Assembly: GCA_002010065.2 (NCBI GenBank)
Contig: MTMD02000002.1
Coordinates: 416,001-480,000 of the forward strand
Direction of reading: 5' to 3'
DNA: 64,000 bases
Origin: Candidatus Pyrohabitans jungbluthii
GTDB lineage: Archaea > Hydrothermarchaeota > Hydrothermarchaeia > Hydrothermarchaeales > BMS3B
The position numbers and the translations under genes were made by a program. A model generated the notes under the pieces. The model searched no databases, was not told the origin of the DNA, and saw only the letters and a list, made by a program, of their open reading frames with translations. This document shows, one piece after another, positions 1-12,497 of this stretch (positions are counted from its first letter, which is position 1; every line of letters begins with the position of its first letter).

Positions 1-3000
1 CCCAGAACCAATTTCCGCCACATCCCAAGCTATAGAATTTACGACCCTTACGTAACAAGAAGCCGTATCGACAACGAATTTATCCCACCTTCTATTGGCA
101 AAATCATCTTCGATGTCAGCGGCGGCTTCGGATGCAACGACTAGGGCTCCTAAGCCTGTAATAGCTTTAGCTGCAGTTTTTTGAGTAACGAGTTTTGTTT
201 CTTTATCAACCAAAATATCGGAGAGGTCATCCACAACGCTATCAAGGTTCATATATTTCTTCTCGGCTTCTATAGCCTTTTCTATATCTCCCATGTTGAT
301 ATATCTTGTAACCCATCCCTTAAGCGTCCTGACGGAATTTTTAAGTGCATCTCTGATTCCTCTTATTTCTTCAACTTCCTGTTCGGTTTTCTTCGCTTGA
401 GTCTTAATACGGTCGTTTACAATACCTCTTCCTATTGCAAATGGTGTCCTAAACCTATCCCAAAGGCTGAGGGAGTCTTCGACATCAGTATTGCCATCGG
501 TTTCCACTGTACCTATTTCCTTAAGTGCATCATCCACGAACCTCTTTTCTTCCACGGTCAATTGCCTATTCTCCTCAATTGCACGCTGTATTGATTCGAT
601 CATGGTGTCCCAGACACTTTCCTTTCCGAGATCTGTGAAAAATTCCTCAATATTTTTTTCTTTTGCCTTATCCAGTATCTCATTTAACTCCTGCTTTTCG
701 GTGCTTCCACCGTTTATAACAGTTCCAAGCTCGTCGGCGATCATCCAAGCATTTGCACCAGTTGCGGGGTCTAAAACAAGCCAGCCATACATCTTTACTT
801 TCCCTATTCTAATAAAGTTCATCGGCGCAAATACGGTATATCCCTGCTCTACAGCGTTTTTGATACTTCTCTCTATGTTCGGCTCAGAAATGTTTAGCTT
901 GTCGATATTGTGCTGGTTAATATTGACGATAGGAACACCCAGCTCAGCTGCTCCTTTGAAAAGATTAATCGTAGAAACCCCGGTGGAATTGTAAAGGGTG
1001 TCGAAGAGTACATGCTCCCATGAGGAGGAGATTGCTCCGGCCATGAAGGCGAATTTTTTCTTCTCAGACGAGCTTCCCTGGATTGAGAGAATATTCCTAG
1101 CCAGGTCTATATGTGTATAGCCTGGCTCAATGGTTGTGGGGACACTTCCAAGATAATCGGTATCGAAAGTAACGCCCAATACAGCAACGGATGGGGAAGC
1201 TCTCCACCATCTTACCCCTTGCGCCTCCGCTAAGAGTTGAGAATTTAGGTCTGTCATTTCAAAGTAGCTAAGGAGACTGAGATACATCGACGCCCCGAGG
1301 GCGTGATCTATAAGGAGGTTCCCATTCAGATTTTCATAAATCCCATCTAATGTCCTTGCGGCCTGTTTCTTTATAACTTCAGAGGGCATTTTCCCCAGGT
1401 CAAAGGCCACCGCATAGTAGCCACCCACTTCCAAGGGAGAAGAAACCACATCTAGGTTATTTGGTGTTATTATGCTCACCCTAAGTTCTTGCTTAACTCC
1501 GAAGGAAGAAGCATTCCCCAAAGCGAAGGGTAGAGAATTAACTCTCAGTACAGGTCGATAATCAAGCATATAAGCGGGAATGTCTGTTAGCGACTCTTGA
1601 GAGTTGACGAATTCTGACATCGAGTCATCAGCTGGAATATAGTCAATGGTTATTTGGTTACCTAAAGTGTTTACTGAGGAGATGTTGAAGCTCAATACAG
1701 TTTTTCCTTCTTCAACTATCTCAATTTTAATAAGATGGACGAACTCTGCCGGGATTTTATTGTACCTTTCAGAAACTACTACTGAATATGGTAGGGTTCC
1801 TGGTATTATCTCCGGTCCTGTTTTAGGTGGTTTAGATGCATATAAAGCGTCAAATTCCTCCCATGTTAGATTCTTGTGCAGGAGGCCTATGTTCTCATAG
1901 TACCATTGGTCGCTCTGATTTTTGAGTTCTGCAGTTGAATTTGATATCATGGAAACGGTATCTTTGGAAAATATTGTATAGTCTTCTGTTATTTTAGTGC
2001 TATTGATTATGTACTCGAATAAATTATCTAGATCATAATCCAAGTCAGCAGTCGGATACGGCTCCTTAGGCTTATAGGGTACGAAGGTGGGGTCAAGAGG
2101 TATCCACTGCTCTGGAGCATTACCGCACGCCTCTCTATTTGCAATGTAGCCACGGTAGCATTCGTCCGAGTACATGCCGTAGGGTAGCTTTACCTCTACC
2201 CATACATGTTCTACGAGGATTTTCTTGTTGGATAACTCAGCCGGTACATAATTCTCCCAGAGGAGTTGAAGGGCTTCTTCAGTTGTGTTGACCCCGAGTA
2301 CCTGCATCATGTACTCTGGCTCTACCTCTACCGTTCCAATGACGAAGCGGGTCTGGTATCCCGCCGCCCTGAGCAGGTCGGATAGCAACGCAGCCTGGTC
2401 GAAGTCATTGCCTGCCTTCTCCCACATCGTCCACAGCGAGCCCTTCATGTAACCGTAGTAGGGGGTGTACTCTATTTCGTCCCTCACGTAGGCGTAGATT
2501 TTTGCTGGGTTGTGGTCGAGCTGGGCGGAAAGGTTGGCTATCTCGGGCGGCACAGGAGAAGCAGCGTCTCCCTGCTCCTCGGCGAAGGCGCTGGGCAGGA
2601 GCGTTGTGAGCTTCTCTATGAGTCTGCCGAGCAGGGGCTTCTCTTCCCGCGCTTCGGCGTGCTTCGGCAGCGGCTTTGGCTTCTCCTTGGGGAAGGTGGT
2701 GCGGGGTTTTATGGGCTTGCCCCCGCTGGGCCTGGTGGGAAGCTGCTCCGGTGCTTTAACCTTCACCGCAGGCTTTGCCGGCTTCTCGAGCAGAGGGGTG
2801 ATATCGCTGAGCAGAGGCTCAACCTGAGCAAGTGCGAGCATCGCCTCGGAGGTGTGGTTGCTCGCGATCTCCTCCCTGAGCCGGGTTAGGGCGGCTGAGA
2901 GGTTCTCAAGGCTGGAGAGGAGCCGCCGGTTTTCCTGCGTCACGAGGGCGACCACTTCTTCATGCTTCTCCAGCTTCTGCCTCGGGATGCGCTTCTTTAC

Positions 3001-3429
3001 CTTCTTCAGCTTCTTGGTGACGCTGTCGGCGGAGCTCCTGAACCTCTCGTCCGCCGTGGCGAGCTCGCTTTTTGATTGGTTGAGGACCGTGAGGTAGAAG
3101 TCGACCAACTTAAGCGCATCCTCGGTGTCGCCCTCCTCCAGCTCCATGCGTATGTCCTCGGTGAGCATGCGGAAGAGGGAAAGCTCACCCTTAAATCCCT
3201 GCTTCAGCCGGGAGAGCTCTTTAAGAGCATGAGTGTACTTGCCGCCCAGGGGTTCGAAGGGCGGATCCCTCAAACCGAGGGTTATAAGCATGAGGTTGAT
3301 AGCCTTCCCGAGGGGAGAATCCCCTCTGGGCTGAGAAGCCCCGCCTGGCAGTGCGCCGGCTGCGGCGTAGGCGGCTGGAACAGGGGAGAGGAGCATGAGG
3401 AGTATCATGAAAAGCGCTCTGCCGCTCAT
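1..3429 (-). CDS. Large secreted transglutaminase-like-domain protein, probable polymorphic-toxin/effector carrier (>=1143 aa, 3' end beyond window edge)
   Basis: Absent from the ORF track because there is no stop inside the window. ATG at 3429-3427 overlaps the TGA of the 2000-aa gene. Manual translation is open to position 1. Signal-peptide-like N-terminus MSGRALFMILLMLLSPVPAAYAA; TGase-like motifs YTPYYGYMKGS, GNDFDQAALLSDLLRAAG, EHVWVEV, WIPLDPTF; later SSWEHVLF and GWLVLDPATGANAWMI...INGG. Confidence 0.85.
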   Translation of the reverse strand, partial: MSGRALFMILLMLLSPVPAAYAAAGALPGGASQPRGDSPLGKAINLMLITLGLRDPPFEPLGGKYTHALKELSRLKQGFKGELSLFRMLTEDIRMELEEGDTEDALKLVDFYLTVLNQSKSELATADERFRSSADSVTKKLKKVKKRIPRQKLEKHEEVVALVTQENRRLLSSLENLSAALTRLREEIASNHTSEAMLALAQVEPLLSDITPLLEKPAKPAVKVKAPEQLPTRPSGGKPIKPRTTFPKEKPKPLPKHAEAREEKPLLGRLIEKLTTLLPSAFAEEQGDAASPVPPEIANLSAQLDHNPAKIYAYVRDEIEYTPYYGYMKGSLWTMWEKAGNDFDQAALLSDLLRAAGYQTRFVIGTVEVEPEYMMQVLGVNTTEEALQLLWENYVPAELSNKKILVEHVWVEVKLPYGMYSDECYRGYIANREACGNAPEQWIPLDPTFVPYKPKEPYPTADLDYDLDNLFEYIINSTKITEDYTIFSKDTVSMISNSTAELKNQSDQWYYENIGLLHKNLTWEEFDALYASKPPKTGPEIIPGTLPYSVVVSERYNKIPAEFVHLIKIEIVEEGKTVLSFNISSVNTLGNQITIDYIPADDSMSEFVNSQESLTDIPAYMLDYRPVLRVNSLPFALGNASSFGVKQELRVSIITPNNLDVVSSPLEVGGYYAVAFDLGKMPSEVIKKQAARTLDGIYENLNGNLLIDHALGASMYLSLLSYFEMTDLNSQLLAEAQGVRWWRASPSVAVLGVTFDTDYLGSVPTTIEPGYTHIDLARNILSIQGSSSEKKKFAFMAGAISSSWEHVLFDTLYNSTGVSTINLFKGAAELGVPIVNINQHNIDKLNISEPNIERSIKNAVEQGYTVFAPMNFIRIGKVKMYGWLVLDPATGANAWMIADELGTVINGGSTEKQELNEILDKAKEKNIEEFFTDLGKESVWDTMIESIQRAIEENRQLTVEEKRFVDDALKEIGTVETDGNTDVEDSLSLWDRFRTPFAIGRGIVNDRIKTQAKKTEQEVEEIRGIRDALKNSVRTLKGWVTRYINMGDIEKAIEAEKKYMNLDSVVDDLSDILVDKETKLVTQKTAAKAITGLGALVVASEAAADIEDDFANRRWDKFVVDTASCYVRVVNSIAWDVAEIGSG

Positions 3430-6400
3430 TTCTTACCGCCTCCCTTCTTCGGCTCTATGGTTACATTCGAAACCAGCTCAACGGTCTCGTTCCCCTCAGG
3501 CGAGGAGTAGGTGATGAGCGTTTTGAGCGTGAAGGTGGTGGTCTCGCTCACCTCGGGGTTGAGGAGCACGTACTCCAGGGTTCTGCTGCTTCTTGGTTCG
3601 AGGGCGGTAAAGCTCCAGGTTATGCTGCTGTTCGCGGCGCTGCCGTCGCTGGAGTCTATCACAAACGCCTCCGGTATCTCCTCGGTTACGGTAACGTTCT
3701 CCGCCGACACGCTGCCCGTGCTGGAAATGCGTATGCTCACTCTGGTCTTAGCTGCCTTGCCCTCGTCCTGAGGCTTGAGCTCCTTGGTAGCGCTGAGGGA
3801 GGCGATGCTCTCGCATGCTTCGAGGCTCCACAGGAGAGCACGCTTTGTAATGTTGAGCCACACACTGGCGTTGTAGCCCTCGTAGGAGCTGAGCGCGATA
3901 TCCGGGGCGAAGAAGATGACCCTGCTTCCGTTGTAGTAGGAGAGGGTTAAGGCGGGGTAGCTCTCAGTCTCCTTTGTCGGCAGCATGTCCAGGGCATAGG
4001 CAAGCACCCTGTAGGTGTATTCCGGCTCAATCTTCGCGAGCCATCCCACCGTGGTGAGGTTCGCTCCCACATAGCCAGCGGTAAGGTGGTGCTCCTCCGT
4101 TATGGTCAGATTCCTGGGCTGATACGGCTCGCCCATCGGCAGGCTGCCGAGGTACTTGAAGCCGGCGATGTCTCCAAGGCCGGGATTGGCCTTGAGGGTG
4201 TAGTCGGAGAATATCAGCTCCCTGGTGAGGCTTCCCCGCTCACTCAGCCATGCCTTTATCTCCTCTATTTCGGTGCTATTCAGCTCCCCTTCTTCAGTGC
4301 AGTCGTACTCGCAGTGCCCCATGTTCAGGAGCCACAGCACGGTGTAGTAGCTGCTCCGAAGCTCGTGCATCAGCTCCTGCGTGGTGTTCACCTTCTTCAC
4401 GTAGGCTATCTCTTTAGCGGCTTCGTCGATGAACCACTCGTCGCTGGCATCGCCACTCCAGGCAAGCACCAGGATGGGGATTACTGTTACATTCGCCGAG
4501 GAGGAGTTGTAGTAGGCATAGCCGTCCTCGTCGTAGTAGGTGATGTTCAGGTTAAGGGTTATGTTGCGGATTTCGGGTATGAGCTGCGCCTCTGCAGAGA
4601 AGTTCAGGAGCACGCCATCCTTTGGCGGAAGCTCGAGGCTCCAGGTTACTGTGCCGGTGCTGGCGTTGAAGGATGCGTTTTCCAAGGTGTTCTCCAGCAC
4701 CCTGAGCTCCTCGGGTACTGTCAGGAGAGCGGTAATATTGACTGCGTCGTCGTAGCCGAGGTTGGTGATGTTCACCGCCACCGCAATGCTGTGGCCGCTG
4801 TAGGCTGCGCTGGGTGTGATTATCTCCCCTTTCAGCAGGGGTATCGGCTTGACCAGGAGCGTTTTCTCCACGCTGGAGACGTATGTTCTGCCGTAGTAGT
4901 CGAGGTAGAAGGCCTTCGCTCTGAGGGTGTAGTTTACGGGGTCGAAGCTGTGGATGAAGGGTGTGAGGAAGGTGTAGGCGACGCCTGCGCTTCCTTCGCT
5001 GGTGATGTCGCCCAGCTGCCAGGTTATGGTGGTGGTACCGCCATTGTAGTCGCCGGAGTAGCTAAGGGCGGTGAAGTTCTCCGGCAGAAGTGCGACGAGG
5101 GAGGTGTTGACAGCGGTGTTCTCCCCGGTGTTCCTCACTGTTAGGTTCGCATTTACCACCTTCAGGGCCCTTGTAGCGTAGGTGCTGAGGCTCTCCTCTA
5201 CTACCAGGTGGGGCACCTCAACGACCCTGAAGGATTTGGAGGCGGCCGCAAGGGCGGTGCCGTTCCTCAGCCTTAGAGTGGCATTAAGGAGGTACTCACC
5301 GCTTCCGTTGCGCGGGGTGAAGTAGTTGTGCACGTATTTTACCTCTCCAGGAGCTATTGCCGGGACATTGAGCACCCACCTGCTCAGGGTGGAGTTCCTC
5401 TTCGTCAGCAGGAATTCCACATAGGAGTCTTCTAGGGGCGTGTTCGGGCTGGTGTTGTTTATCTTCACGTAGGAGTCGACGATCTCGCCCAGCCTGTAGA
5501 CACCCCTATCGGTGAACAGGTTCATCTCCGCGCCTATTGCGCTGGCCATCTCGAAGAACGTGGTGGCGTTGGCCAGGGTGACGTTCAGCTCTCCTATGAG
5601 GGTACAAGCAACGGTGTAGTTCCCGGGCGCAAGTAGAGAGGTGTTGTTCAGAGGCAGAGAGAAGCTCAGGTTGCTCGATGGTGGAAGCACCGCTATCTCC
5701 ATGGGCTGCGCAGAAACTCTCGCGCCGGTGGGTGTGTCGATAAACGTGCGCAGGGTGAGGTTGCCCAGCGTCTGGTTGCCGTTGTTGCTCACCGTGCCGA
5801 CAAGCTCTATGGTGTCGTAGGGTGAATATACCCGCCTGCTCGTATTTATGCTGAGGCTCACCACATTCAGAGCTTCCACCTGCAGGGGCGGGAACTCTCT
5901 GACGACGCTGGCTGAGGTTACGCCGTCGACGTAGCTTATTCTCGCCTTTGAGATGTTCCTCTTCTCAAGGGCGGAGAGGACGAAGGAGACGTTGTACAGG
6001 ATGTTTATGGTCTCCCCGTTCTGTATCTCGGGGAATATCCATACAAGGGTGTTGTTGGCTGTATAGTTGGGAGGAGTGATGGGCTCCGCCTCGCCGTAAA
6101 GCACCTCCTCCTCGTAAGTGACGTTTATTCCAGCCAGTAGGTGGGTGCCGTCCAGGATTTCACGTTGATAGTTCATGGCTTCAACCAGCTCCTCATAGCT
6201 GGTGGTGAAGTTGAATAAACCGCTGGTTACACCCGTTACGGAGCCTGTAGTGGTGGAAGGAGTGGTGGGAGCTTCTCCGGGTTCTTCGGCAGCAGGCGGA
6301 GGAGGCTGAGGAATGAACACCGGTATGTAATAGTATACTACGATGGACGCTTCGGCGATATTACCACTGGTGTCAACGGCTCTGACGGTTATCCTGTTTG

Positions 6401-9400
6401 CTCCGTAGCGGAGGGTTAGGGGCTTACCCCAAGAAGTTGTGCCGTCCGCCGGTTCCCAATCTCCGTAATTCAGCCTTACTTTCACCTCCCTAATCCCCCT
6501 GTTGTCCGAGGCATTGCCTTGCAGCACTATACTGCTCGTCTCAAAACTCTGATATGTCTCCGGATATAAAATGGTCACATTGGGCGGAGTAGTATCCGGG
6601 GCACCTCTGATTACGGTGATAGAAGCATTAGCCGCAACACCCAACGTGTTGGTGGCCCTCACCACAATCACATTGGGACCTGGACGGAGGGTTACCACTT
6701 TCTCCCAGTGAGCAGTCCCGGAAGCTGGCTCATACGGCTCACCGTTAACACTCACCTCCACTCTGGAGATTCCTCTCTCATCATATGCAGTGCCATTAAC
6801 CACCACAGTCTCAGTGTAAACCGTTTCGTTGTTCTTTGGATAGGCAATCTCTATAGACGGCTGGATGTATTCCAGGGGATAGCATCCGCCATCGGAGGCG
6901 CAGATTGTACCCGAGGGGCAGAATTCACGTGTTATGCTGTATCCCTTTGGATATGAGGAGGAGAGGATACAAACCACATCATAGGGGTCGGAGTTTGTGT
7001 CCGCTGCAATGCATTCGTCACTCAGCTTAGCATAACAGCCCATATTCTCAGCCAAGCATAGAGCACTGTACTGGTAATTGGCACAGAAAGAAACAGCTTC
7101 TTCGCCATTCTTACCGCATGCTTTGTAGCCAGCAGGACCATACCACCGTTCATTAGTTTGACGCCAGTACTCTAATATAGGTAGTTCGTACTTATTATCA
7201 GAGTGATAATGCTCATAAATGTATTGCCTATAGAAGAAATCGGTGACGCTGCACTCAACACCAACTAAATTGACAGGATATTCTTCTATTTTTTCATAAT
7301 AATCGTAATTTGTTAATAGCCGATAATATTCATACCTACATGGTCCCCTTTTCTTGGTAAATGTATAAATGTTTAAATATCTTGGGGTAGAATAAGCGGG
7401 TATCTCGCCCTCATATGCTTTAACTGATATCATATCGCCGGTATCTGGGGATACCAGCCCAAACATTGAAGCGGGAGCCCAGCATTCTACAATAAAAGTC
7501 TCACCAGCATCAAACACACCATTGTTATTCGGGTCGCTTACAAGCGTGCAGTTCTGACTGCTGTTTTTACTGACCCATGCAGAAGCGCTTTCCTTTACCT
7601 CAAGGTAGTCTCCAATTTTAAGGAATTTAACTCCAATCTTCCACTCCCTCTTGGAGGAATCCAGATTCTTGGCATTTACTTTCACCCTTATCTCCTTCGT
7701 TGGCAGCACAAATATGTCGCCATAATCAATCCATGCGTTCCTGCTGGTATCATATATTTTAAAAGAGACCTCCATGGTCGGTTCTGGGAGATATGGGCAG
7801 TAGCCACCTCTTGCTATGTCAGTGGAGGTGCATTGTAACCCAGAAGCATCGAGGGCAGATCCGCCAAGTGGGTCCGCGCAGTATCTTATTCTGGCGGTAT
7901 TACAGGAGATTTTTCCAAGATAGGTGGTATTCAAAATAAGGTCCACTGCCCCAGAAGAGTGTATAAAACCCTGATTGGAAAATGCGATATTGGATGAGAT
8001 ACTTATGTTTGCTGAGAGGGGGTTGCCATCAGCACACTTATCATCACCCACACCTCCTGTGCCGATTAAAGAAGAAATGTTTCCTTTGCTGGTTATGATG
8101 AGTAAATCGGCAGATATGGCTACTTTTCCGGCATCACCGCCTCTTGCATTCTTATAGCAGCCACAGCTAATTTCGCTGCTAAATCTCCCCCCATTCCCAC
8201 CGTTCGCTGCAATAGAAGTGTTTACTATAACCATGGCTGCCTGAATATCAACCACTCCACCGTTGCCTCCTGGTCCGCCCTGTGCGTCGCCCCTTCCCTT
8301 ACCTCCCCGGGCGCCGTTCACATAAATCGGGAAATTAATGCTCACATTTGTGCCTCTGAGTATCACGCTTCCGCCGTTTCCACCTTTGCCGCCAAAACCG
8401 GTACAGGCATCGTCATCGCTGCTTTCATATCCACTTCCACCCCGTCCGCCAACCGCCTTCAGGTAACCATTGACAGTTATTTCCGAATTGGATTTAATAT
8501 AGATTTTTCCAGCATTTCCGCCGTCTCCACCGTCCCTGCCGAATCCTCCGTTTGCGGTTATGCTACCGCTAACAACTGTTTTATCGGAATTGATAGTTAT
8601 CGTACCTCCAGGACCGGCACTCCCACTATGGCGATACGCATCCCCCGAATTCCCACCTGCAGCAAAAATATCCCTCCTTATATAAACCTCACCAGCATCT
8701 ATACTTATTGAACCTGCTGTTCCTCCACCGCCACCGAAACCATAGCCCTTACCATTTCCGCCATTTCCACCATTTGCAGAGACGACCGAGTTAATTAACA
8801 CTTTTGATGCTTTGAAATAAATCGAACCTCCGCTTCCTCCTCTCCCACCATCCGAATCGGTACCACCACCTCTCCCGCCGTCCCCGCCTCGTGTGGATAG
8901 GGGGGCATACACTCTTATCTCAGTTGCTTTAAAATTAATTAGACCTGCACTACCTCCGGTTCCGCCAGTTCTGTAACTTCCACCTATTCCACCAATTCCA
9001 CCATTCGCGGAAACTGCTCCATAGATGTTAATTTTTTCTGCCTTAACAAAGATTGAACCACCATGCCCACCGCTTCCACCATTCTGCAACCATCCTCCAT
9101 TTCTCCCTCCTCCCCCATTCGCAGAAAGACTTGCACCAGCGTTTATTTGGAAAAGATTGTTCGCATAAAATCTAACATTTCTCGAATTCCTGCCCTCTTT
9201 TGGCACCACTACTGTACCGGTGATGTAGATGTTTGGAGCTTCACAGACGTAGGTTTGGGCATCAAGATTGCATTTTTCTTCAATATCTGCTGCTGAAGAA
9301 ATGTACAAATCAGATTCTAAAGCATAAGAAGAATGGGTAAAGAATATTAAAACGAAAATGCCTAATAAAGAAATTCTCTTAAACCATATGAATGGAATTC

Positions 9401-9428
9401 TTACAATAGGGAGGATTATCTTATTCAT
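3426..9428 (-). CDS. 2000-aa extracellular/surface protein: Gly-rich repeats, Cys-rich region, two Ig-like (Big) repeats, P/T linker, CARDB/DUF11-like Ig domains
   Basis: N-terminal hydrophobic signal; repeated GGxGGxGGxIxIxA units; two similar Ig repeats (VxVNGTAYDERGI / IxLQGNASDNRGI); PQPPPP...TTPSTTT linker; many N-x-S/T sequons in the C-terminal half. Confidence 0.85.
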   Translation of the reverse strand: MNKIILPIVRIPFIWFKRISLLGIFVLIFFTHSSYALESDLYISSAADIEEKCNLDAQTYVCEAPNIYITGTVVVPKEGRNSRNVRFYANNLFQINAGASLSANGGGGRNGGWLQNGGSGGHGGSIFVKAEKINIYGAVSANGGIGGIGGSYRTGGTGGSAGLINFKATEIRVYAPLSTRGGDGGRGGGTDSDGGRGGSGGSIYFKASKVLINSVVSANGGNGGNGKGYGFGGGGGTAGSISIDAGEVYIRRDIFAAGGNSGDAYRHSGSAGPGGTITINSDKTVVSGSITANGGFGRDGGDGGNAGKIYIKSNSEITVNGYLKAVGGRGGSGYESSDDDACTGFGGKGGNGGSVILRGTNVSINFPIYVNGARGGKGRGDAQGGPGGNGGVVDIQAAMVIVNTSIAANGGNGGRFSSEISCGCYKNARGGDAGKVAISADLLIITSKGNISSLIGTGGVGDDKCADGNPLSANISISSNIAFSNQGFIHSSGAVDLILNTTYLGKISCNTARIRYCADPLGGSALDASGLQCTSTDIARGGYCPYLPEPTMEVSFKIYDTSRNAWIDYGDIFVLPTKEIRVKVNAKNLDSSKREWKIGVKFLKIGDYLEVKESASAWVSKNSSQNCTLVSDPNNNGVFDAGETFIVECWAPASMFGLVSPDTGDMISVKAYEGEIPAYSTPRYLNIYTFTKKRGPCRYEYYRLLTNYDYYEKIEEYPVNLVGVECSVTDFFYRQYIYEHYHSDNKYELPILEYWRQTNERWYGPAGYKACGKNGEEAVSFCANYQYSALCLAENMGCYAKLSDECIAADTNSDPYDVVCILSSSYPKGYSITREFCPSGTICASDGGCYPLEYIQPSIEIAYPKNNETVYTETVVVNGTAYDERGISRVEVSVNGEPYEPASGTAHWEKVVTLRPGPNVIVVRATNTLGVAANASITVIRGAPDTTPPNVTILYPETYQSFETSSIVLQGNASDNRGIREVKVRLNYGDWEPADGTTSWGKPLTLRYGANRITVRAVDTSGNIAEASIVVYYYIPVFIPQPPPPAAEEPGEAPTTPSTTTGSVTGVTSGLFNFTTSYEELVEAMNYQREILDGTHLLAGINVTYEEEVLYGEAEPITPPNYTANNTLVWIFPEIQNGETINILYNVSFVLSALEKRNISKARISYVDGVTSASVVREFPPLQVEALNVVSLSINTSRRVYSPYDTIELVGTVSNNGNQTLGNLTLRTFIDTPTGARVSAQPMEIAVLPPSSNLSFSLPLNNTSLLAPGNYTVACTLIGELNVTLANATTFFEMASAIGAEMNLFTDRGVYRLGEIVDSYVKINNTSPNTPLEDSYVEFLLTKRNSTLSRWVLNVPAIAPGEVKYVHNYFTPRNGSGEYLLNATLRLRNGTALAAASKSFRVVEVPHLVVEESLSTYATRALKVVNANLTVRNTGENTAVNTSLVALLPENFTALSYSGDYNGGTTTITWQLGDITSEGSAGVAYTFLTPFIHSFDPVNYTLRAKAFYLDYYGRTYVSSVEKTLLVKPIPLLKGEIITPSAAYSGHSIAVAVNITNLGYDDAVNITALLTVPEELRVLENTLENASFNASTGTVTWSLELPPKDGVLLNFSAEAQLIPEIRNITLNLNITYYDEDGYAYYNSSSANVTVIPILVLAWSGDASDEWFIDEAAKEIAYVKKVNTTQELMHELRSSYYTVLWLLNMGHCEYDCTEEGELNSTEIEEIKAWLSERGSLTRELIFSDYTLKANPGLGDIAGFKYLGSLPMGEPYQPRNLTITEEHHLTAGYVGANLTTVGWLAKIEPEYTYRVLAYALDMLPTKETESYPALTLSYYNGSRVIFFAPDIALSSYEGYNASVWLNITKRALLWSLEACESIASLSATKELKPQDEGKAAKTRVSIRISSTGSVSAENVTVTEEIPEAFVIDSSDGSAANSSITWSFTALEPRSSRTLEYVLLNPEVSETTTFTLKTLITYSSPEGNETVELVSNVTIEPKKGGGKK
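8050..9130 (-). repeat. Coding Gly-rich degenerate tandem repeat (about 45 aa period, roughly 7-8 units) inside the 2000-aa gene
   Basis: Units such as SANGGxGGxG...GGxGGxGGSIxIxA recur; on the + strand they appear as cc(a/g/t)cc runs. Confidence 0.75.
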
Positions 9429-11502
9429 TCTCCCCCTCCTTAGAGTAAATTATCATATAAACAGGAATCCCATTTTCAGCTGCCCACTCGATAGCGCTCA
9501 GGGGATCGTCATAGCTAGGAGCCCTCACCACAGTGAAGATGTACCAGTTTTTGTCCCCCCTACCGTTTTCCAGTAAGATTTCGACGCTTCTGTTTATCCC
9601 CTCTCCGAGTTTGAGTATCGGTGCTCCTATCGTTATGCTCGAAATTGCACTCAGCGCTGCATCTCTGTCTGTTGATAGATTCAATAAGACTGTGGTGGTG
9701 TTTGAGACAGCGACCACGGCAACTCTGTCTCCCACGGCAAGGGAAGTGACGAAGGAATTCAGAGCGGTTTTCACATCCTCTAAGGCAGAAGTGGAGAGGT
9801 TGGTGCAGTCCACTAAAATAACGACATCTGCCGGGGGCTTGCCAGTTTTGCCCTGGATTGTGACGTTTATGGTGGCAGTGACTCTTCCAGGTGGGAAGGT
9901 TTCTGAGCTTATCCTCCTTTCCACCCTAATCCTAGGCCCGATGGATAGTGCTGAATACGTTGTCCCCCCTTCCACAAGTGCTCCATCTTTATAGACCCTA
10001 GCAATGACCGGGTAGGTTCCGTAGGCAAGGTTTCCGGTATAGAGGGTACCCACCTTAATGTATCCCCTCTTCCCGACGTTGAGGGTGGCGGTGGTGTTGC
10101 TGGACCAGAAGACCGTCTGATTGGGAGATAAAAGTTCAACCTCTATAAAAGCATCGCTGATGTTCCTGTTGCCGATGTTTTCCACATCTAGATAGAAATT
10201 CACCAGCGATTTTATGTCGGCATGGGACGGAATTATCTCCAGCCTGTGAATCCTAACCTTTTGCGTTGGAAGGACGTTCAACTCCGTCTGATTCGCGTGA
10301 ATCACGCGGCCTTCGCCATCTCTAATTTCCACAATCAAGTATGCAGCACCAGGCATGAGATGGTCGGTGACAAAGTAGGAGGAATAGCCCACCACAGAAC
10401 CCGCTGTGAAATCTCGTATGAGCTTGGGTGGGAGAATTTTTACGATTTTCTTTTCCTGAACCACCTTGCCCACAATTATTATATTTTTCTGATTTTCTCC
10501 CAAATTGGAAATCTGGGTAAATAGCGAATATTCCTCACCAGCTGGTATTGAGAAATTCGCAAGGGTGGAGTTGTCTTTTTTTATAATTAGGTTCCCCATC
10601 CTCAGGGCGATGCTCGATTTCAGATACTCCTGCAGGGCAAGCAGGCATTGTGATGTCGTATATGCCCTTCCTGAAGCATCAAGTCCCCAGCTTCCATCAG
10701 GGTTCTGACTATTTATCAGTGCTGTGACAAGATTCTCTTTCTCATCAGCAAAATGGCCATTATAAACTAAGGCTTGTAGAGCATTTGCTAATTCGAGTTC
10801 GCCAGAAAGTGTCCCCAAATTCTCCGAAAGATGAGCTGCGGATTTGTAGCCAGCCTTGTAGGCGTCCTCATTGAATATCAGCTCATTGTCAGTTAAAACG
10901 AAGGATAATTTTCCAAGTGTCTGAGAAGCCAAGGCTGTGTAAAGATTATCTGGCGCAAAAGAGCCATCTTGTTGCTGGATTTTCTCCAAGTAGGCGATTC
11001 CCCTTCGCAGAGAAGTGGAATTTGGGCTGGATTTTTTTAGCGCCTCCAATGCGAGGGAGGTATCAATTATGTTGCTTGAGAAAAACGTTGAATATCCCCA
11101 GCCACCGTCTGAGTTCTGGAAAGAGACCAACGATGAGGCATTTGCCCCAATTAGGAGGACTTTTCGGGAGAGGAAATCAGTCCCCTCTATATTGGCAAAA
11201 GAAATCCAGGATTTGCCATTTTCAATGGTGTCTGAAGCATCTATGTAATCTTGATTCTCAAGGGCTAATATGGCTTCGGCTGTACTCCATGGCAGACCTC
11301 CATCCCAGCTGCCATCGGCATTCTGGTTAAGGACCAACCAAGATGCTCCTTTTTCGATGCTATCCTGGACAGATAACCCAAACACCGGGCTTATGCATAG
11401 TGATAAGACCAGAAAAAGTCCACTGAAATGTAATAATCCCTGTATTATGTTTCCATCTGGAAATTGGCAGGCCAAACCTTTTAGCATGGTCCCTGCATCC
11501 AT
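9421..11502 (-). CDS. Secreted prenyltransferase/squalene-cyclase-repeat (alpha/alpha toroid) protein with Ig-like domains and a C-terminal truncated vWA domain
   Basis: Repeats QNADGSW, QNSDGGWG, QQQDGSF, QNPDGSWG; vWA start PADVVILVD...DRVAVV; hydrophobic signal LFLVLSLCISPVFG. The track start at 11640 runs through an AT-rich promoter-like region, so ATG 11502 or 11487 is more likely. Confidence 0.75.
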   Translation of the reverse strand: MDAGTMLKGLACQFPDGNIIQGLLHFSGLFLVLSLCISPVFGLSVQDSIEKGASWLVLNQNADGSWDGGLPWSTAEAILALENQDYIDASDTIENGKSWISFANIEGTDFLSRKVLLIGANASSLVSFQNSDGGWGYSTFFSSNIIDTSLALEALKKSSPNSTSLRRGIAYLEKIQQQDGSFAPDNLYTALASQTLGKLSFVLTDNELIFNEDAYKAGYKSAAHLSENLGTLSGELELANALQALVYNGHFADEKENLVTALINSQNPDGSWGLDASGRAYTTSQCLLALQEYLKSSIALRMGNLIIKKDNSTLANFSIPAGEEYSLFTQISNLGENQKNIIIVGKVVQEKKIVKILPPKLIRDFTAGSVVGYSSYFVTDHLMPGAAYLIVEIRDGEGRVIHANQTELNVLPTQKVRIHRLEIIPSHADIKSLVNFYLDVENIGNRNISDAFIEVELLSPNQTVFWSSNTTATLNVGKRGYIKVGTLYTGNLAYGTYPVIARVYKDGALVEGGTTYSALSIGPRIRVERRISSETFPPGRVTATINVTIQGKTGKPPADVVILVDCTNLSTSALEDVKTALNSFVTSLAVGDRVAVVAVSNTTTVLLNLSTDRDAALSAISSITIGAPILKLGEGINRSVEILLENGRGDKNWYIFTVVRAPSYDDPLSAIEWAAENGIPVYMIIYSKEGENE

Positions 11503-11690
11503 TAAATATTTGAAAAATTTTTTATAAAGCGCGTATTTTTTAAAACCTATATATAATTTTTTAGAAATTTCTTTCAAATAAAATCGATGATTTGCATTTA
11601 GTAACTTTTTGTTATTGAACACGCCTTCAAAAAATGGCAATGCCTATTTTCATCCCTCATGGCCATAAGTGAAGTATCTCCAAGGTTTAA

Positions 11691-12278
11691 CTATTCAATC
11701 GTCGCATGCCTGGTGCGCATCTCCTCCTCTGTTTTTCCAAGCCTCACCATGAGCTCTACTATTAGCGCATCAAGGAAGATAAGAACTGAAATTTCAAAAA
11801 GTGTGCCGAGGGGTGCGAGAGGATAATGTTCCCCCTTTATCTGGCGCATCACAAAGTCCTTCTCTCCGCGAAGCTTCGTCCTGCCCTCTACCACAACCAC
11901 AATGTCCGCTAACCTCCCTAGGGAAGAGTTGGGATAGGTGGTGATAAGCGCCACCTTTGCGCCTATATTCTTCGCTATTTTTGCAGCGTTCACCACGCTT
12001 GTGGTCTCACCCGAGCCTGAGATGGTTATGAGCAGGTCTTCGCGTTCAATCGCCGGCGTTATAATCTCCCCCACCACAAATACGTTTATACCCAGGTGCA
12101 TGAGGCGCATCGCAAACGCCTTGGCTACGAGCCCACTTCTGCCGGCACCGTACACAAACACCTTCTTAGAAGAGAGTATCGCATCAATGAGGGCCTCCAC
12201 CTCTTCCTCACCCAGCCCTTCAGCCACATCCTCTACATGCTTCGTTATAGTAAAAATCGCCTCCTTCAGAACTTCCAT
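11691..12278 (-). CDS. hxlB: 6-phospho-3-hexuloisomerase (SIS domain)
   Basis: VFVYGAGRSGLVAKAFAMRLMHLG, ISGSGET, APLGTLFE, C-terminal RHATIE. Confidence 0.93.
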   Translation of the reverse strand: MEVLKEAIFTITKHVEDVAEGLGEEEVEALIDAILSSKKVFVYGAGRSGLVAKAFAMRLMHLGINVFVVGEIITPAIEREDLLITISGSGETTSVVNAAKIAKNIGAKVALITTYPNSSLGRLADIVVVVEGRTKLRGEKDFVMRQIKGEHYPLAPLGTLFEISVLIFLDALIVELMVRLGKTEEEMRTRHATIE

Positions 12279-12352
12279 GCATGCAAGTTGCGTTTCGCCA
12301 TATAAATTTTTTCCGGGCGAAAGGTTACATTGTTAAGATTGTCTTATAATAT

Positions 12353-12497
12353 GGCTCGGCCAAACCGGAGGGCGTGAGAAGCATGATCGCCCTTGACTTA
12401 GCCGAGCTACAGGGCTGCAGAGCAATCCTCGCTCTCGCGCTTGGGTGAGCAAGCATGATCCCAAGTCGGTTAGCGGGGGGACATCTGCAGCCCTTTC
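12353..12497 (+). ncRNA. Archaeal box H/ACA pseudouridylation guide sRNA with two hairpin units
   Basis: Unit 1: GGCTCGGC/GCCGAGCT stem, pocket CAAACCG/GACTTA, GAGGGCG/CGCCCTT stem, K-loop TGA-gaagc-ATGA, ACA at 12409-12411. Unit 2: TCCTCGCT/AGCGGGGG stem, pocket CTCGC/CGGTT, GCTTGGG/CCCAAGT stem, K-loop TGA-gcaagc-ATGA, ACA at 12481-12483, enclosed by an AGGGCTGCAGA/TCTGCAGCCCT stem. Confidence 0.85.

Follow-up and report, generated by a model that had tools for sequence, protein, structure and literature searches.

Probable division of a vWA/Ig-like unit between two adjacent genes of Candidatus Pyrohabitans and its proposed reassembly from two secreted proteins

How the parts of one domain come to be coded by two adjacent genes, and whether their products can still build it together, is the question raised by a locus of a deep-sea archaeon of the genus Candidatus Pyrohabitans (Hydrothermarchaeota; genome G000), found in the 64,000 nt stretch of DNA that was analysed (the window). 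Its three genes lie on the minus strand: gene A (protein P0002; 9421..11502), gene B (P0001, 2000 aa; 3426..9428) and gene C (P0003; 1..3429). The latter codes for a secreted transglutaminase-like protein (Pfam Transglut_core, 44.1 bits) whose full length, taken from the genome, is 1188 aa, the gene continuing 137 nt beyond the window start. The gene B ATG overlaps the gene A stop by 8 nt (ATGAATAA) and the gene C start overlaps the gene B stop by 4 nt. The three genes probably form a surface-adhesin operon, where relatives usually have an operon of two genes. A congeneric contig is 79–82% identical to the locus.

Gene A codes for 693 aa from M47, the probable start (11502), and its orthologue at metagenome locus L023 has an ATG start and 693 aa; an alternative TTG upstream (11640, minus strand) gives 739 aa (ORF 9421–11640). 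In the protein, a signal/anchor segment and an alpha/alpha toroid with QW-type repeats are accompanied by Ig-like domains, two orphan Ig strands and a vWA domain without its carboxyl-terminal part (aa 601–733; 9442..9840, minus strand), which was characterized by Pfam, AF2, VIA-align, MIDAS alignment and dN/dS. Its match to Pfam VWA PF00092 (residues 605–735; 37.6 bits, E 3.4e-9, above the gathering cut-off of 23.8 bits) spans profile positions 1–142 of 174, and the protein stops four residues later. The AF2 model runs b1-a1-b2-b3-a2-a3-b4-a4-b5 to the chain end, giving five strands and four helices. VIA-align superimposes residues 599–735 on solved vWA domains with Z of 14–17.6 over 130–138 aligned residues, in ranges that stop well short of the target ends (e.g., residues 4–148 of 206 in 3ibs_A). 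None of the three methods found in gene A the carboxyl-terminal alpha5-beta6-alpha6 that completes a six-stranded vWA fold in the same chain. The MIDAS metal site (DxSxS, Thr, Asp) is lost as well: DRSGS of single-chain relatives is replaced by DCTNL, and none of the three split sequences in the alignment keeps the Thr or the beta4 Asp, each being substituted or deleted. The claims of the first-pass annotation that this vWA domain lacks its final helix-TGG-strand-helix and carries a degenerate MIDAS motif are thus borne out. The segment that it took for the start of an Ig domain (RVERRIS...VTATINVTIQG) aligns to the two strands preceding the vWA domain of single-chain relatives. This orphan segment (aa 566–600, GPRIRVERRISSETFPPGRVTATINVTIQGKTG; 9841..9945, minus strand) is, as judged from sequence, the counterpart of strands one and two of a DUF11/CnaA-like Ig domain that would continue in gene B.

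The last gene A codons (AAGGAGGGGGAG) hold a Shine-Dalgarno-like GGAGG for gene B in the junction (9421..9445, minus strand). The junctions of G001, L023 and L024 have GGAGG too, with 4 nt overlaps, so that the two genes are adjacent, with overlapping stop and start and this motif, at the four loci for which DNA is available. Gene B then opens with a signal peptide (aa 1–35; 9324..9428, minus strand) whose hydrophobic core ISLLGIFVLIFF is followed by SYA/LE, the putative cleavage site read from the sequence. Next comes a head of ~1000 residues (aa 36–1034; 6327..9323, minus strand) composed of Gly-rich repeats (aa ~95–470), a Cys-rich region with a conserved "IYDTS..W.DYGDIFVLP" domain (aa ~550–850) and two Big_7/Glucodextran_B Ig domains identified by Pfam (aa 851–1034). 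It is connected by a Pro/Thr-rich linker (aa 1035–1062; 6243..6326, minus strand), identical at 28 of 28 residues in G001, to a tail (aa 1063–1097, SVTGVTSGLFNFTTSYEELVEAMNYQREILDGTHL; 6138..6242, minus strand) that is the candidate for the vWA TGG motif, beta6 and alpha6. A partial Ig domain follows (aa 1098–1190; 5859..6137, minus strand), probably the remainder, from about strand C on, of the DUF11/CnaA-like domain begun in gene A. The body (aa 1191–2000; 3429..5858, minus strand) has CARDB, MG2-like and DUF11 repeats according to Pfam, an alpha/beta domain (~1650–1870) and a last Ig domain, and ends ...EPKKGGGKK. Note that GC3 is low in both gene A and the head (0.31–0.58) and 0.75–0.79 in the body, a pattern that does not fit a simple insertion.

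Beyond the linker, from aa 1063 on (nt 6242 downward), the sequence reads SVTGVTSGLFNFTTSYEELVEAMNYQREIL... and had been said to resemble the missing vWA end plus the rest of the Ig domain. The resemblance holds for the two parts together: when the Ig part behind the tail is included, hhalign yields P 0.0013 in an alignment of 97 columns that begins exactly at TSG/TGG, and MAFFT aligns both with the vWA end and Ig part of three single-chain proteins. The tail alone is weak. It scores 15.3 (P 0.048) at the expected place, IANITGGKYFYAPTPENLNEIY..REIAGEI of the single-chain relatives, a score reached by 24 of 400 column shuffles and thus not significant, and it was not detected by Pfam or HMMER profiles. 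A helix is predicted within it at aa 1078–1092. The partial Ig domain, from about residue 1128, matches residues 1737–1892 of the single-chain protein P0006 (BLASTP E 8e-9), while hhalign to intact DUF11 repeats is weak (P 0.01–0.2). The equivalent piece after the vWA domain of P0022 matches Pfam DUF11 positions 35–99 of 114 (E 0.0025, below the gathering score). Both orphan Ig pieces model poorly in their own chains, a result that the thin depth of their alignments (5–6 sequences) could explain: gene A residues 568–602 have pLDDT ~30 and no secondary structure between neighbouring domains at 60–88, and gene B aa 1098–1190 have 25–40, with 80–88 for the next domain, when gene B is folded alone. 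The flanking domains fold well from the same shallow alignments.

The whole unit is found in one chain in four relatives of the same phylum: G001, as a paralogue in the same genus, G006, G011 and G019. Its order there is alpha/alpha toroid, Ig domains, two Ig strands, a complete vWA domain with DRSGS, the rest of the Ig domain and the CARDB repeats of a CARDB/DUF11 stalk. The P0006 vWA domain is complete (profile positions 1–173 of 174); P0002 residues 439–730 align with P0006 1096–1429 and stop at beta5. The proteins P0022, P0023 and P0006 thus share phylum and domain order with the split pair, one of them also the genus, but they are single polypeptides without a head, have the complete DRSGS-bearing vWA domain and end in a different, charged helical carboxyl terminus. 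One source names such proteins "Mg-chelatase subunit ChlD/prenyltransferase beta subunit". In G000, no single-chain paralogue that could supply the function was found. A transglutaminase-like gene follows at both single-chain loci scanned, those of P0022 and P0006 (G001:C20 and G019), and also downstream of the L023 split pair, being present at all loci scanned. The search for homologues with both segments contiguous was therefore positive, though at only ~25% identity, and these collinear proteins lend good support to the earlier proposal of one ancestral gene into which a module bearing its own signal peptide was inserted. Their identity to the split pair is only ~19–25% in the vWA and Ig regions that were compared, so that there is no close outgroup and the ancestral state is deduced from architecture.

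The head is exchangeable, as had also been suggested from the G000 sequence. Between G000 and L023, nucleotide identity is 91.5% up to window position 9419 and 86% from 6239 onward, gene B body included. From 6240 to 9418 there is essentially no nucleotide similarity except for one 57 nt match, and the heads differ in architecture. The replacement between these two close loci concerns the head alone; its breakpoints fall on the upstream stop codon and on the first tail codon. Other heads vary as well: that of P0007/P0008 has no Gly-rich part, and in G001 the signal peptide is followed by ~750 additional nucleotides.

The split arrangement is old and has been maintained. It was found in five or six independent sequences, down to ~50% identity and always with the same end point. 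The gene A types of G000, G001/L024, L023, P0019, P0020 and P0021 end at the same strand (46–80% identity in full-length alignment); since five of the five family members recovered do so, truncation is not due to chance. Strong matches to each gene family among the 38 phylum genomes searched are confined to G000 and G001, and in this set neither family was found full-length without the other. The comparison of these two genomes gives dN/dS well below 1 across the whole locus, with 0.09 for the vWA domain and 0.03 for the tail against 0.12–0.29 in other regions of at least 37 codons. The two half-domains have the lowest values of their proteins, the tail being lowest in the locus except for the 28-codon linker, which has zero substitutions. 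In the ~50% homologues, beta4-alpha4-beta5 is 68% identical compared to 42–58% elsewhere, and the tail is 63% identical to that of P0008.

The reading that we favour, and consider somewhat better than even, is that the first operon gene underwent insertional fission and that its two secreted halves reassemble outside the cell. The truncation, the collinear single-chain relatives, the conservation of the split arrangement, the purifying selection and the recombination breakpoints are observed; that the halves physically reassemble, in which order the events took place and what the head does are what we infer from them. Fold complementation, likewise proposed in the first-pass annotation, has indirect support from selection, the strict adjacency of the two genes and the low model confidence of each orphan piece in its own chain. 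The insertion would have brought a stop codon, a ribosome-binding site, a start codon, a signal peptide, the ~1000-residue head and the Pro/Thr linker in place of vWA helix alpha5. Gene A would then end with Ig strands A-B and vWA beta1-beta5, and gene B would resume after the head with vWA beta6-alpha6, Ig strands C onward and the stalk. The two products would be exported separately and, once outside, the interdigitated half-units would most likely rebuild the nested vWA-in-Ig pair, a joint tying the toroid protein to the stalk with the head hanging from it. Lacking helix alpha5, the rebuilt domain would fall short of a full vWA and, as the metal site is lost, it is proposed to be a structural socket rather than a ligand binder, so that ligand binding would fall to the head. 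Heads would be exchanged by recombination between the conserved gene A 3' end and the tail.

Several alternatives were weighed. The split products might work separately after fission, the truncated vWA domain and the tail being tolerated remnants or segments conserved for another reason, e.g., the folding of their neighbours. Such an outcome, for which the lost MIDAS, the absent alpha5 and the non-significant score of the isolated tail speak, is nevertheless unlikely: the supposed remnants are the most constrained segments and the most nearly identical ones among distant homologues, truncation falls at one invariant point in the five family members, each protein would have to keep both an incomplete Ig and an incomplete vWA domain, and the two families stay together among the genomes searched. 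That the split state is ancestral and the single chains arose by fusion with loss of the head draws on the distance of the single-chain relatives, but we give it very little credit as vWA is single-chain in every solved structure matched, single chains with intact MIDAS occur in more lineages (G001, G006, G011, G019, P0024–P0027) than the split form, strong in 2 of 38 genomes, and it is the split form that has lost the metal site. A frameshift, a misassembly or a recently broken gene might be suspected in a compositionally mosaic locus of a metagenome-assembled genome. This is already contradicted, with next to no probability left to it, by intact long ORFs, signal peptide and ribosome-binding site in independent assemblies at 46–92% identity and by dN/dS well below 1 throughout.

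Docking could also be followed by a covalent lock, either a CnaA-type isopeptide bond linking the first Ig strand, from gene A, to the penultimate one, from gene B, or a cross-link made by the transglutaminase-like protein of the operon. DUF11 (CLIPPER) has been described as CnaA-like and isopeptide bonds in CnaA-like domains as joining first and penultimate strands (10.1101/2025.04.25.650565); single-chain P0022 carries the expected Lys, Asp and Asn, P0020 has Lys at the isopeptide position and P0008, possibly from the same genome, has Asp where Asn is expected. The Lys position is, however, Arg in G000, G001, L023 and P0021, which makes the bond impossible in these four; among the split sequences Lys is found only in P0020. 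That Lys is absent from the intact DUF11 repeats of P0001 as well, and all these residues were assigned in alignments of low identity (~25%). The transglutaminase-like gene, although present downstream at all loci scanned, is not split-specific because unsplit relatives carry it too. A lock of either kind is improbable. Returning to fission with reassembly, a tentative extension, which we hold to be possible but rather less probable than the reassembly itself, is that the two chains act as a "plug and socket", a heat-stable conserved dock for heads exchanged by recombination, and that in one lineage at least the joint (P0020 with P0008) may regain a Lys-Asp/Asn isopeptide. If true, this joint would lock two natural proteins together covalently, in the manner of SpyTag/SpyCatcher.

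Several known systems share features with the proposed unit. Split inteins and fractured genes were considered and rejected: P0001 and P0002 have no intein or Hint Pfam match (E up to 0.1) and gene B opens with a signal peptide, not an intein half. Donor-strand complementation in chaperone-usher systems is alike in that one secreted protein supplies the segment missing from the incomplete fold of another, and in its modular assembly with exchangeable tips. The exchange proposed here differs in being reciprocal, with an alpha/beta-domain strand and helix and at least five Ig strands, and in occurring between two different proteins only, with no polymer implied. Chaperone-usher systems have a periplasmic chaperone, an usher and polymerising subunits that bear an N-terminal extension strand; a search limited to the three operon proteins found no Pfam chaperone or usher family, and the host is an archaeon. 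In the Mfa5 (Porphyromonas gingivalis), RrgA and GBS104 tip adhesins (PDB 6to1, 2ww8 and 3txa, as cited in PMC7835359), the vWA domain is described as an insertion that separates strands B and C of an Ig-like domain (PMC7835359). The unit proposed here would be similar, with a vWA domain between the first two strands and the rest of an Ig-like domain, atop a stalk of Ig-like repeats, and the gene A vWA model matches Mfa5 with Z 16.7–16.9 (VIA-align). Each of these adhesins is one chain, its MIDAS works and its isopeptide bond is intramolecular, whereas the unit described here is divided between two separately exported proteins with MIDAS lost and the isopeptide Lys changed to Arg, and its archaeal host offers neither a sortase nor a type V pilus context. 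Large foreign modules are likewise carried in vWA loops by archaeal and bacterial surface proteins with split HMM coordinates (P0043, P0051, P0053, P0056 and others, including ANME/Methanolobus "adhesin/invasin"). Those insertions stay in frame and occupy other loops, after profile position ~22 or 60–87, while the insertion of the present locus brings a stop, a start and a signal peptide.

The locus lies in an archaeal genome assembly of 2.0 Mb that is 99.95% complete, and a congeneric contig (phylum Hydrothermarchaeota) matches it with 79–82% nucleotide identity. It carries three genes, all on the minus strand. The product of gene A (window 9421–11640, with a probable start at M47, position 11502; protein P0002) begins with a hydrophobic segment, followed by an alpha/alpha toroid carrying QW repeats of the squalene-cyclase type, then Ig-like domains and a vWA domain. 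In the product of gene B (3426–9428, 2000 aa; protein P0001) the signal peptide is followed by Gly-rich repeats, a region rich in Cys, a pair of Big_7/Glucodextran_B domains, the Pro/Thr linker and a stalk of DUF11/CARDB/MG2-like repeats. Gene C (1–3429, 1188 aa in full) codes for a secreted transglutaminase-like protein. The start of gene B overlaps gene A, being placed 8 nt ahead of its stop, and a GGAGG motif is found within the final codons of gene A. An ORF of 195 aa (11691–12278, minus strand) is located immediately upstream of gene A, inside a block that is 91.5% identical to L023, a metagenome locus with the split pair. The carboxyl terminus of the gene B protein (window 3429–4475, aa ~1650–2000) is a conserved alpha/beta domain, ILVLAWSGDASDEWF..., without Pfam match, which is 75% identical even to P0008, a homologue of ~50% overall identity. 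It finishes in an invariant ...EPKKGGGKK, without a membrane anchor.

The vWA domain of gene A was described in the first-pass annotation as truncated and with a degenerate MIDAS, and both features were borne out. The match spans Pfam positions 1–142 of 174 (1–139 in the orthologue from the congeneric genome G001) and the chain stops 4 residues later. The AF2 model of the whole protein has a low mean pLDDT (53) and leaves the toroid unmodelled; its vWA part (pLDDT 56–87) follows the order b1-a1-b2-b3-a2-a3-b4-a4-b5, where the chain ends. Residues 599–735 align to solved vWA domains (VIA-align, Z 14–17.6, 130–138 residues aligned), the aligned ranges ending in every case well short of the target end (e.g. 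3ibs_A 4–148 of 206). The metal site is gone: where single-chain relatives have DRSGS, gene A has DCTNL, and neither the Thr nor the Asp further on is kept.

The proposal of an ancestral single gene called for relatives in which the two segments are contiguous; these were found, at low identity, in four genomes of the phylum (G019, G001, G011 and G006). P0006 from G019 (2773 aa) is composed of toroid repeats, Ig domains, a complete vWA domain (profile 1–173 of 174, DRSGS), an Ig domain and CARDB repeats. Residues 439–730 of P0002 align to its residues 1096–1429, ending at beta5, while P0001 aligns from residue ~1128 to its residues 1737–1892 (E 8e-9). Similar proteins are coded in G001, which belongs to the same genus as the window's genome (1619 aa), G011 (1578 aa) and G006 (>1057 aa); no single-chain copy was found in the window's genome itself. 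In G001 (contig C20) and G019 the next gene codes for a transglutaminase-like protein, as in the window. The usual operon therefore consists of a toroid-vWA-Ig-stalk gene followed by a transglutaminase-like gene; in the window the first of these is broken in two, ~1060 additional codons separating the parts. A search for longer, fused relatives of P0002 returned none among 4403 candidates, which is weak evidence. With the segment of gene B that spans tail, Ig and CARDB as query, the search of representative proteins gave 12 matches at E up to 0.001; the two close ones, P0007 and P0008, were rejected as fused forms, both being head-bearing gene B forms. A PDB sequence search with the single-chain vWA and Ig region retrieved only a BatA-like vWA (4rck) and no nested example. 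Note that in P0006 (G019:C8, 1941–10262) the post-vWA Ig domain is itself host to an insertion, a domain of ~230 aa with another copy earlier in the protein, and that there is an N run inside the gene. A vWA profile match in two separated stretches is seen in many surface proteins of archaea and bacteria that are related to the single-chain vWA (P0028–P0041, P0043, P0051, P0053, P0056, P0058, P0059 and P0065), which suggests that large insertions sit in frame after about profile position 22 or 60–87; several of these proteins are named adhesin/invasin (Methanolobus) or originate from ANME-2c.

The first-pass annotation placed the missing vWA end in gene B, directly after the Pro/Thr linker, where the sequence from aa 1063 onward reads SVTGVTSGLFNFTTSYEELVEAMNYQREILDG... 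MAFFT and hhalign both put SVTGVTSGLFNFTTSYEELVEAMNYQREILDG on ...IANITGGKYFYAPTPENLNEIYREIAGEI..., the vWA end of the single-chain relatives, and the match runs on into the next Ig-like domain. The tail (aa 1063–1097) together with the Ig part gives an hhalign P of 0.0013 over 97 columns, the first aligned position being exactly TSG/TGG. The tail alone (44 columns) falls in the expected place with a score of 15.3 and P 0.048, a score reached by 24 of 400 column shuffles. With a HMMER profile built from 60 vWA(+Ig) sequences the tail went undetected in P0001, P0004, P0007 and P0008 (3.9 bits, E 22, for the best domain that reached into it), and the 154-aa tail segment had no VWA hit in Pfam at E values up to 10. 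The claim thus stands on position and collinearity, and not on a sequence signal of the tail itself.

The Ig domain is distributed between the two proteins as well. In single-chain proteins ~30 residues (…AEKSVSPEELLPGNATVNLTISLRGEG) precede the vWA domain, and for the post-vWA piece the Pfam DUF11 match begins only at profile position 35 and stays below the gathering score (E 0.0025). Homologous pre-vWA strands are retained in gene A (aa 566–600) and the rest of the Ig domain in gene B (aa 1098–1190), so that each protein holds parts of both the vWA and the Ig domain. Comparison of the orphan strands with intact DUF11 repeats was not significant (hhalign P 0.22–0.63). When each protein is folded alone, precisely these pieces lack structure: residues 568–602 of gene A have a pLDDT of ~30, flanked by domains at 60–88, and residues 1058–1188 of gene B have 25–40, followed by a domain at 80–88; the underlying alignments are thin (5 and 6 sequences) and these low values are therefore no more than supportive.

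The split form is old and has been maintained. Five members of the gene A family, 46–80% identical in full-length alignment, all stop a few residues past beta5. In all four loci for which DNA is available (the window, G001, L023 and L024) gene B directly follows gene A, the stop codon of the one overlaps the start codon of the other, and a GGAGG motif is present. P0020, of gene A type, and P0008, of gene B type, are each ~50% identical to the window's proteins, and both are listed with a longest contig of 423,057 nt; strong matches to gene A or B among the 38 phylum genomes searched were confined to the window's genome and G001. A frameshift-fused product was rejected, as the orthologues overlap to different extents (8 nt versus 4 nt) and every one of them has a GGAGG and a start codon of its own. 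Between the window's genome and G001 the truncated vWA has a dN/dS of 0.09 and the tail one of 0.03, other regions having 0.12–0.29; the first two are the lowest values of their proteins except for the 28-codon linker, which has zero substitutions. In the ~50% homologues the beta4-alpha4-beta5 region is 68% identical versus 42–58% in the rest of gene A, and the tail is 63% identical to P0008, a value exceeded by only one body domain. The independent assemblies and the low dN/dS rule out that the locus is an artefact or a pseudogene. Such constraint and identity are also unexpected of vestigial remnants, and it is rather improbable that the half-domains are non-interacting leftovers. Fusion instead of fission as the direction of change is unlikely, the distribution of the two forms and the state of the MIDAS speaking against it.

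Most likely, we infer, the separately exported half-units rebuild the nested vWA-in-Ig pair. Genes A and B would be translated as a coupled pair and their products exported separately before reassembly. Strand beta6 of gene B would join gene A at the edge of beta5, the gene B helix 1078–1092, which is amphipathic, would fill the place of alpha6, and the Ig sandwich in gene B would be finished by strands A-B of gene A. In such an assembly the vWA, without its metal, would act as a structural socket, and the head, hung via the Pro/Thr linker at the former alpha5 site, as the variable binding part. A less likely alternative is that the joint is covalently locked by a CnaA-type isopeptide, P0020 having a Lys and P0008 an Asp at the partner position (cf. 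the CLIPPER preprint, 10.1101/2025.04.25.650565); this is not supported for the window's genome, where the required Lys is Arg, as it is in three other members.

The suggestion that heads are swappable is upheld by comparison with L023. Nucleotide identity is 91.5% from upstream of gene A to window 9419, the stop/start junction, and 86.0% from 6239, the second tail codon, to 2046; between them (6240–9418) there is essentially no similarity apart from one 57-nt match. This gap bounded by conserved flanks indicates that the part between the half-domains was exchanged as a unit. The L023 head (P0007) has no Gly-rich region and carries another inserted domain, and its shared Cys-rich and Big_7 parts are only 41–45% identical to those of the window. 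Gene B of G001 has the window's type of head plus ~750 nt after the signal peptide. This extra segment (window 9319 versus ~8902–9658 of the G001 locus) codes for a Cys- and Tyr-rich domain of ~240 aa directly past the signal peptide. The head core (query residues 1–300) had no other match in the 38 phylum genomes, where only the Big_7 domains of the head were matched. The Gly-rich repeats (window 8019–9146, ~375 aa, GGxGGxGG...I.I.A) are the part most diverged from G001 (56–66% nucleotide identity) and in NCBIfam match only the AgmC N-terminal region, weakly (E 0.0017); an ESM Atlas search with them was uninformative (scores 0.83 or less).

Over window 1–12400 GC3 changes sharply from block to block: it is 0.31–0.58 in gene A and the head, 0.75–0.79 in the gene B body and in gene C up to codon ~350, and 0.3–0.5 in the rest of gene C; long ORFs of the genome have a median of 0.63 and a 99th percentile of 0.72. 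A simple one-step insertion predicts equal composition for gene A and the gene B body, which GC3 contradicts, and the blocks must therefore be assumed to have recombined later or to differ in origin. Several recombination joints make the locus a mosaic. The high-GC3 stretch (0.70–0.85, exceeding the genome's 99th percentile) covers gene B from about codon 1100 and codons 1–350 of gene C, and GC3 of the Big_7 region is 0.75–0.88 in G001 versus 0.57–0.62 in the window's genome. In the transglutaminase-like protein the carboxyl-terminal two thirds (window 1–2046) are another variable block, at whose edge, window 2046, L023 ceases to be similar in nucleotide sequence. Outside the window, downstream of gene C (C2:409345–415223, minus strand), there are partial gene C copies (aa 445–1128, 39% identical; aa 581–1170, 35–48%) and a 94%-identical copy of its conserved core (aa 326–445). 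They resemble orphan C-terminal cassettes with a recombination handle.

These findings open to testing the cell surface of the Hydrothermarchaeota, which were described in 2019 as a phylum without cultivated representatives (PMC6759336). If the halves reassemble, a domain-destroying insertion can instead create a docking joint, the locus would provide a concrete case of adhesin-head cassette exchange in uncultured hyperthermophilic archaea, and it would supply a thermostable split pair as a candidate for protein engineering. A full-text literature search found no report of a vWA/Ig unit that is naturally fissioned and reciprocally shared by two secreted proteins; nested vWA-in-Ig adhesins, in-frame insertions into vWA domains and strand complementation are each already known.
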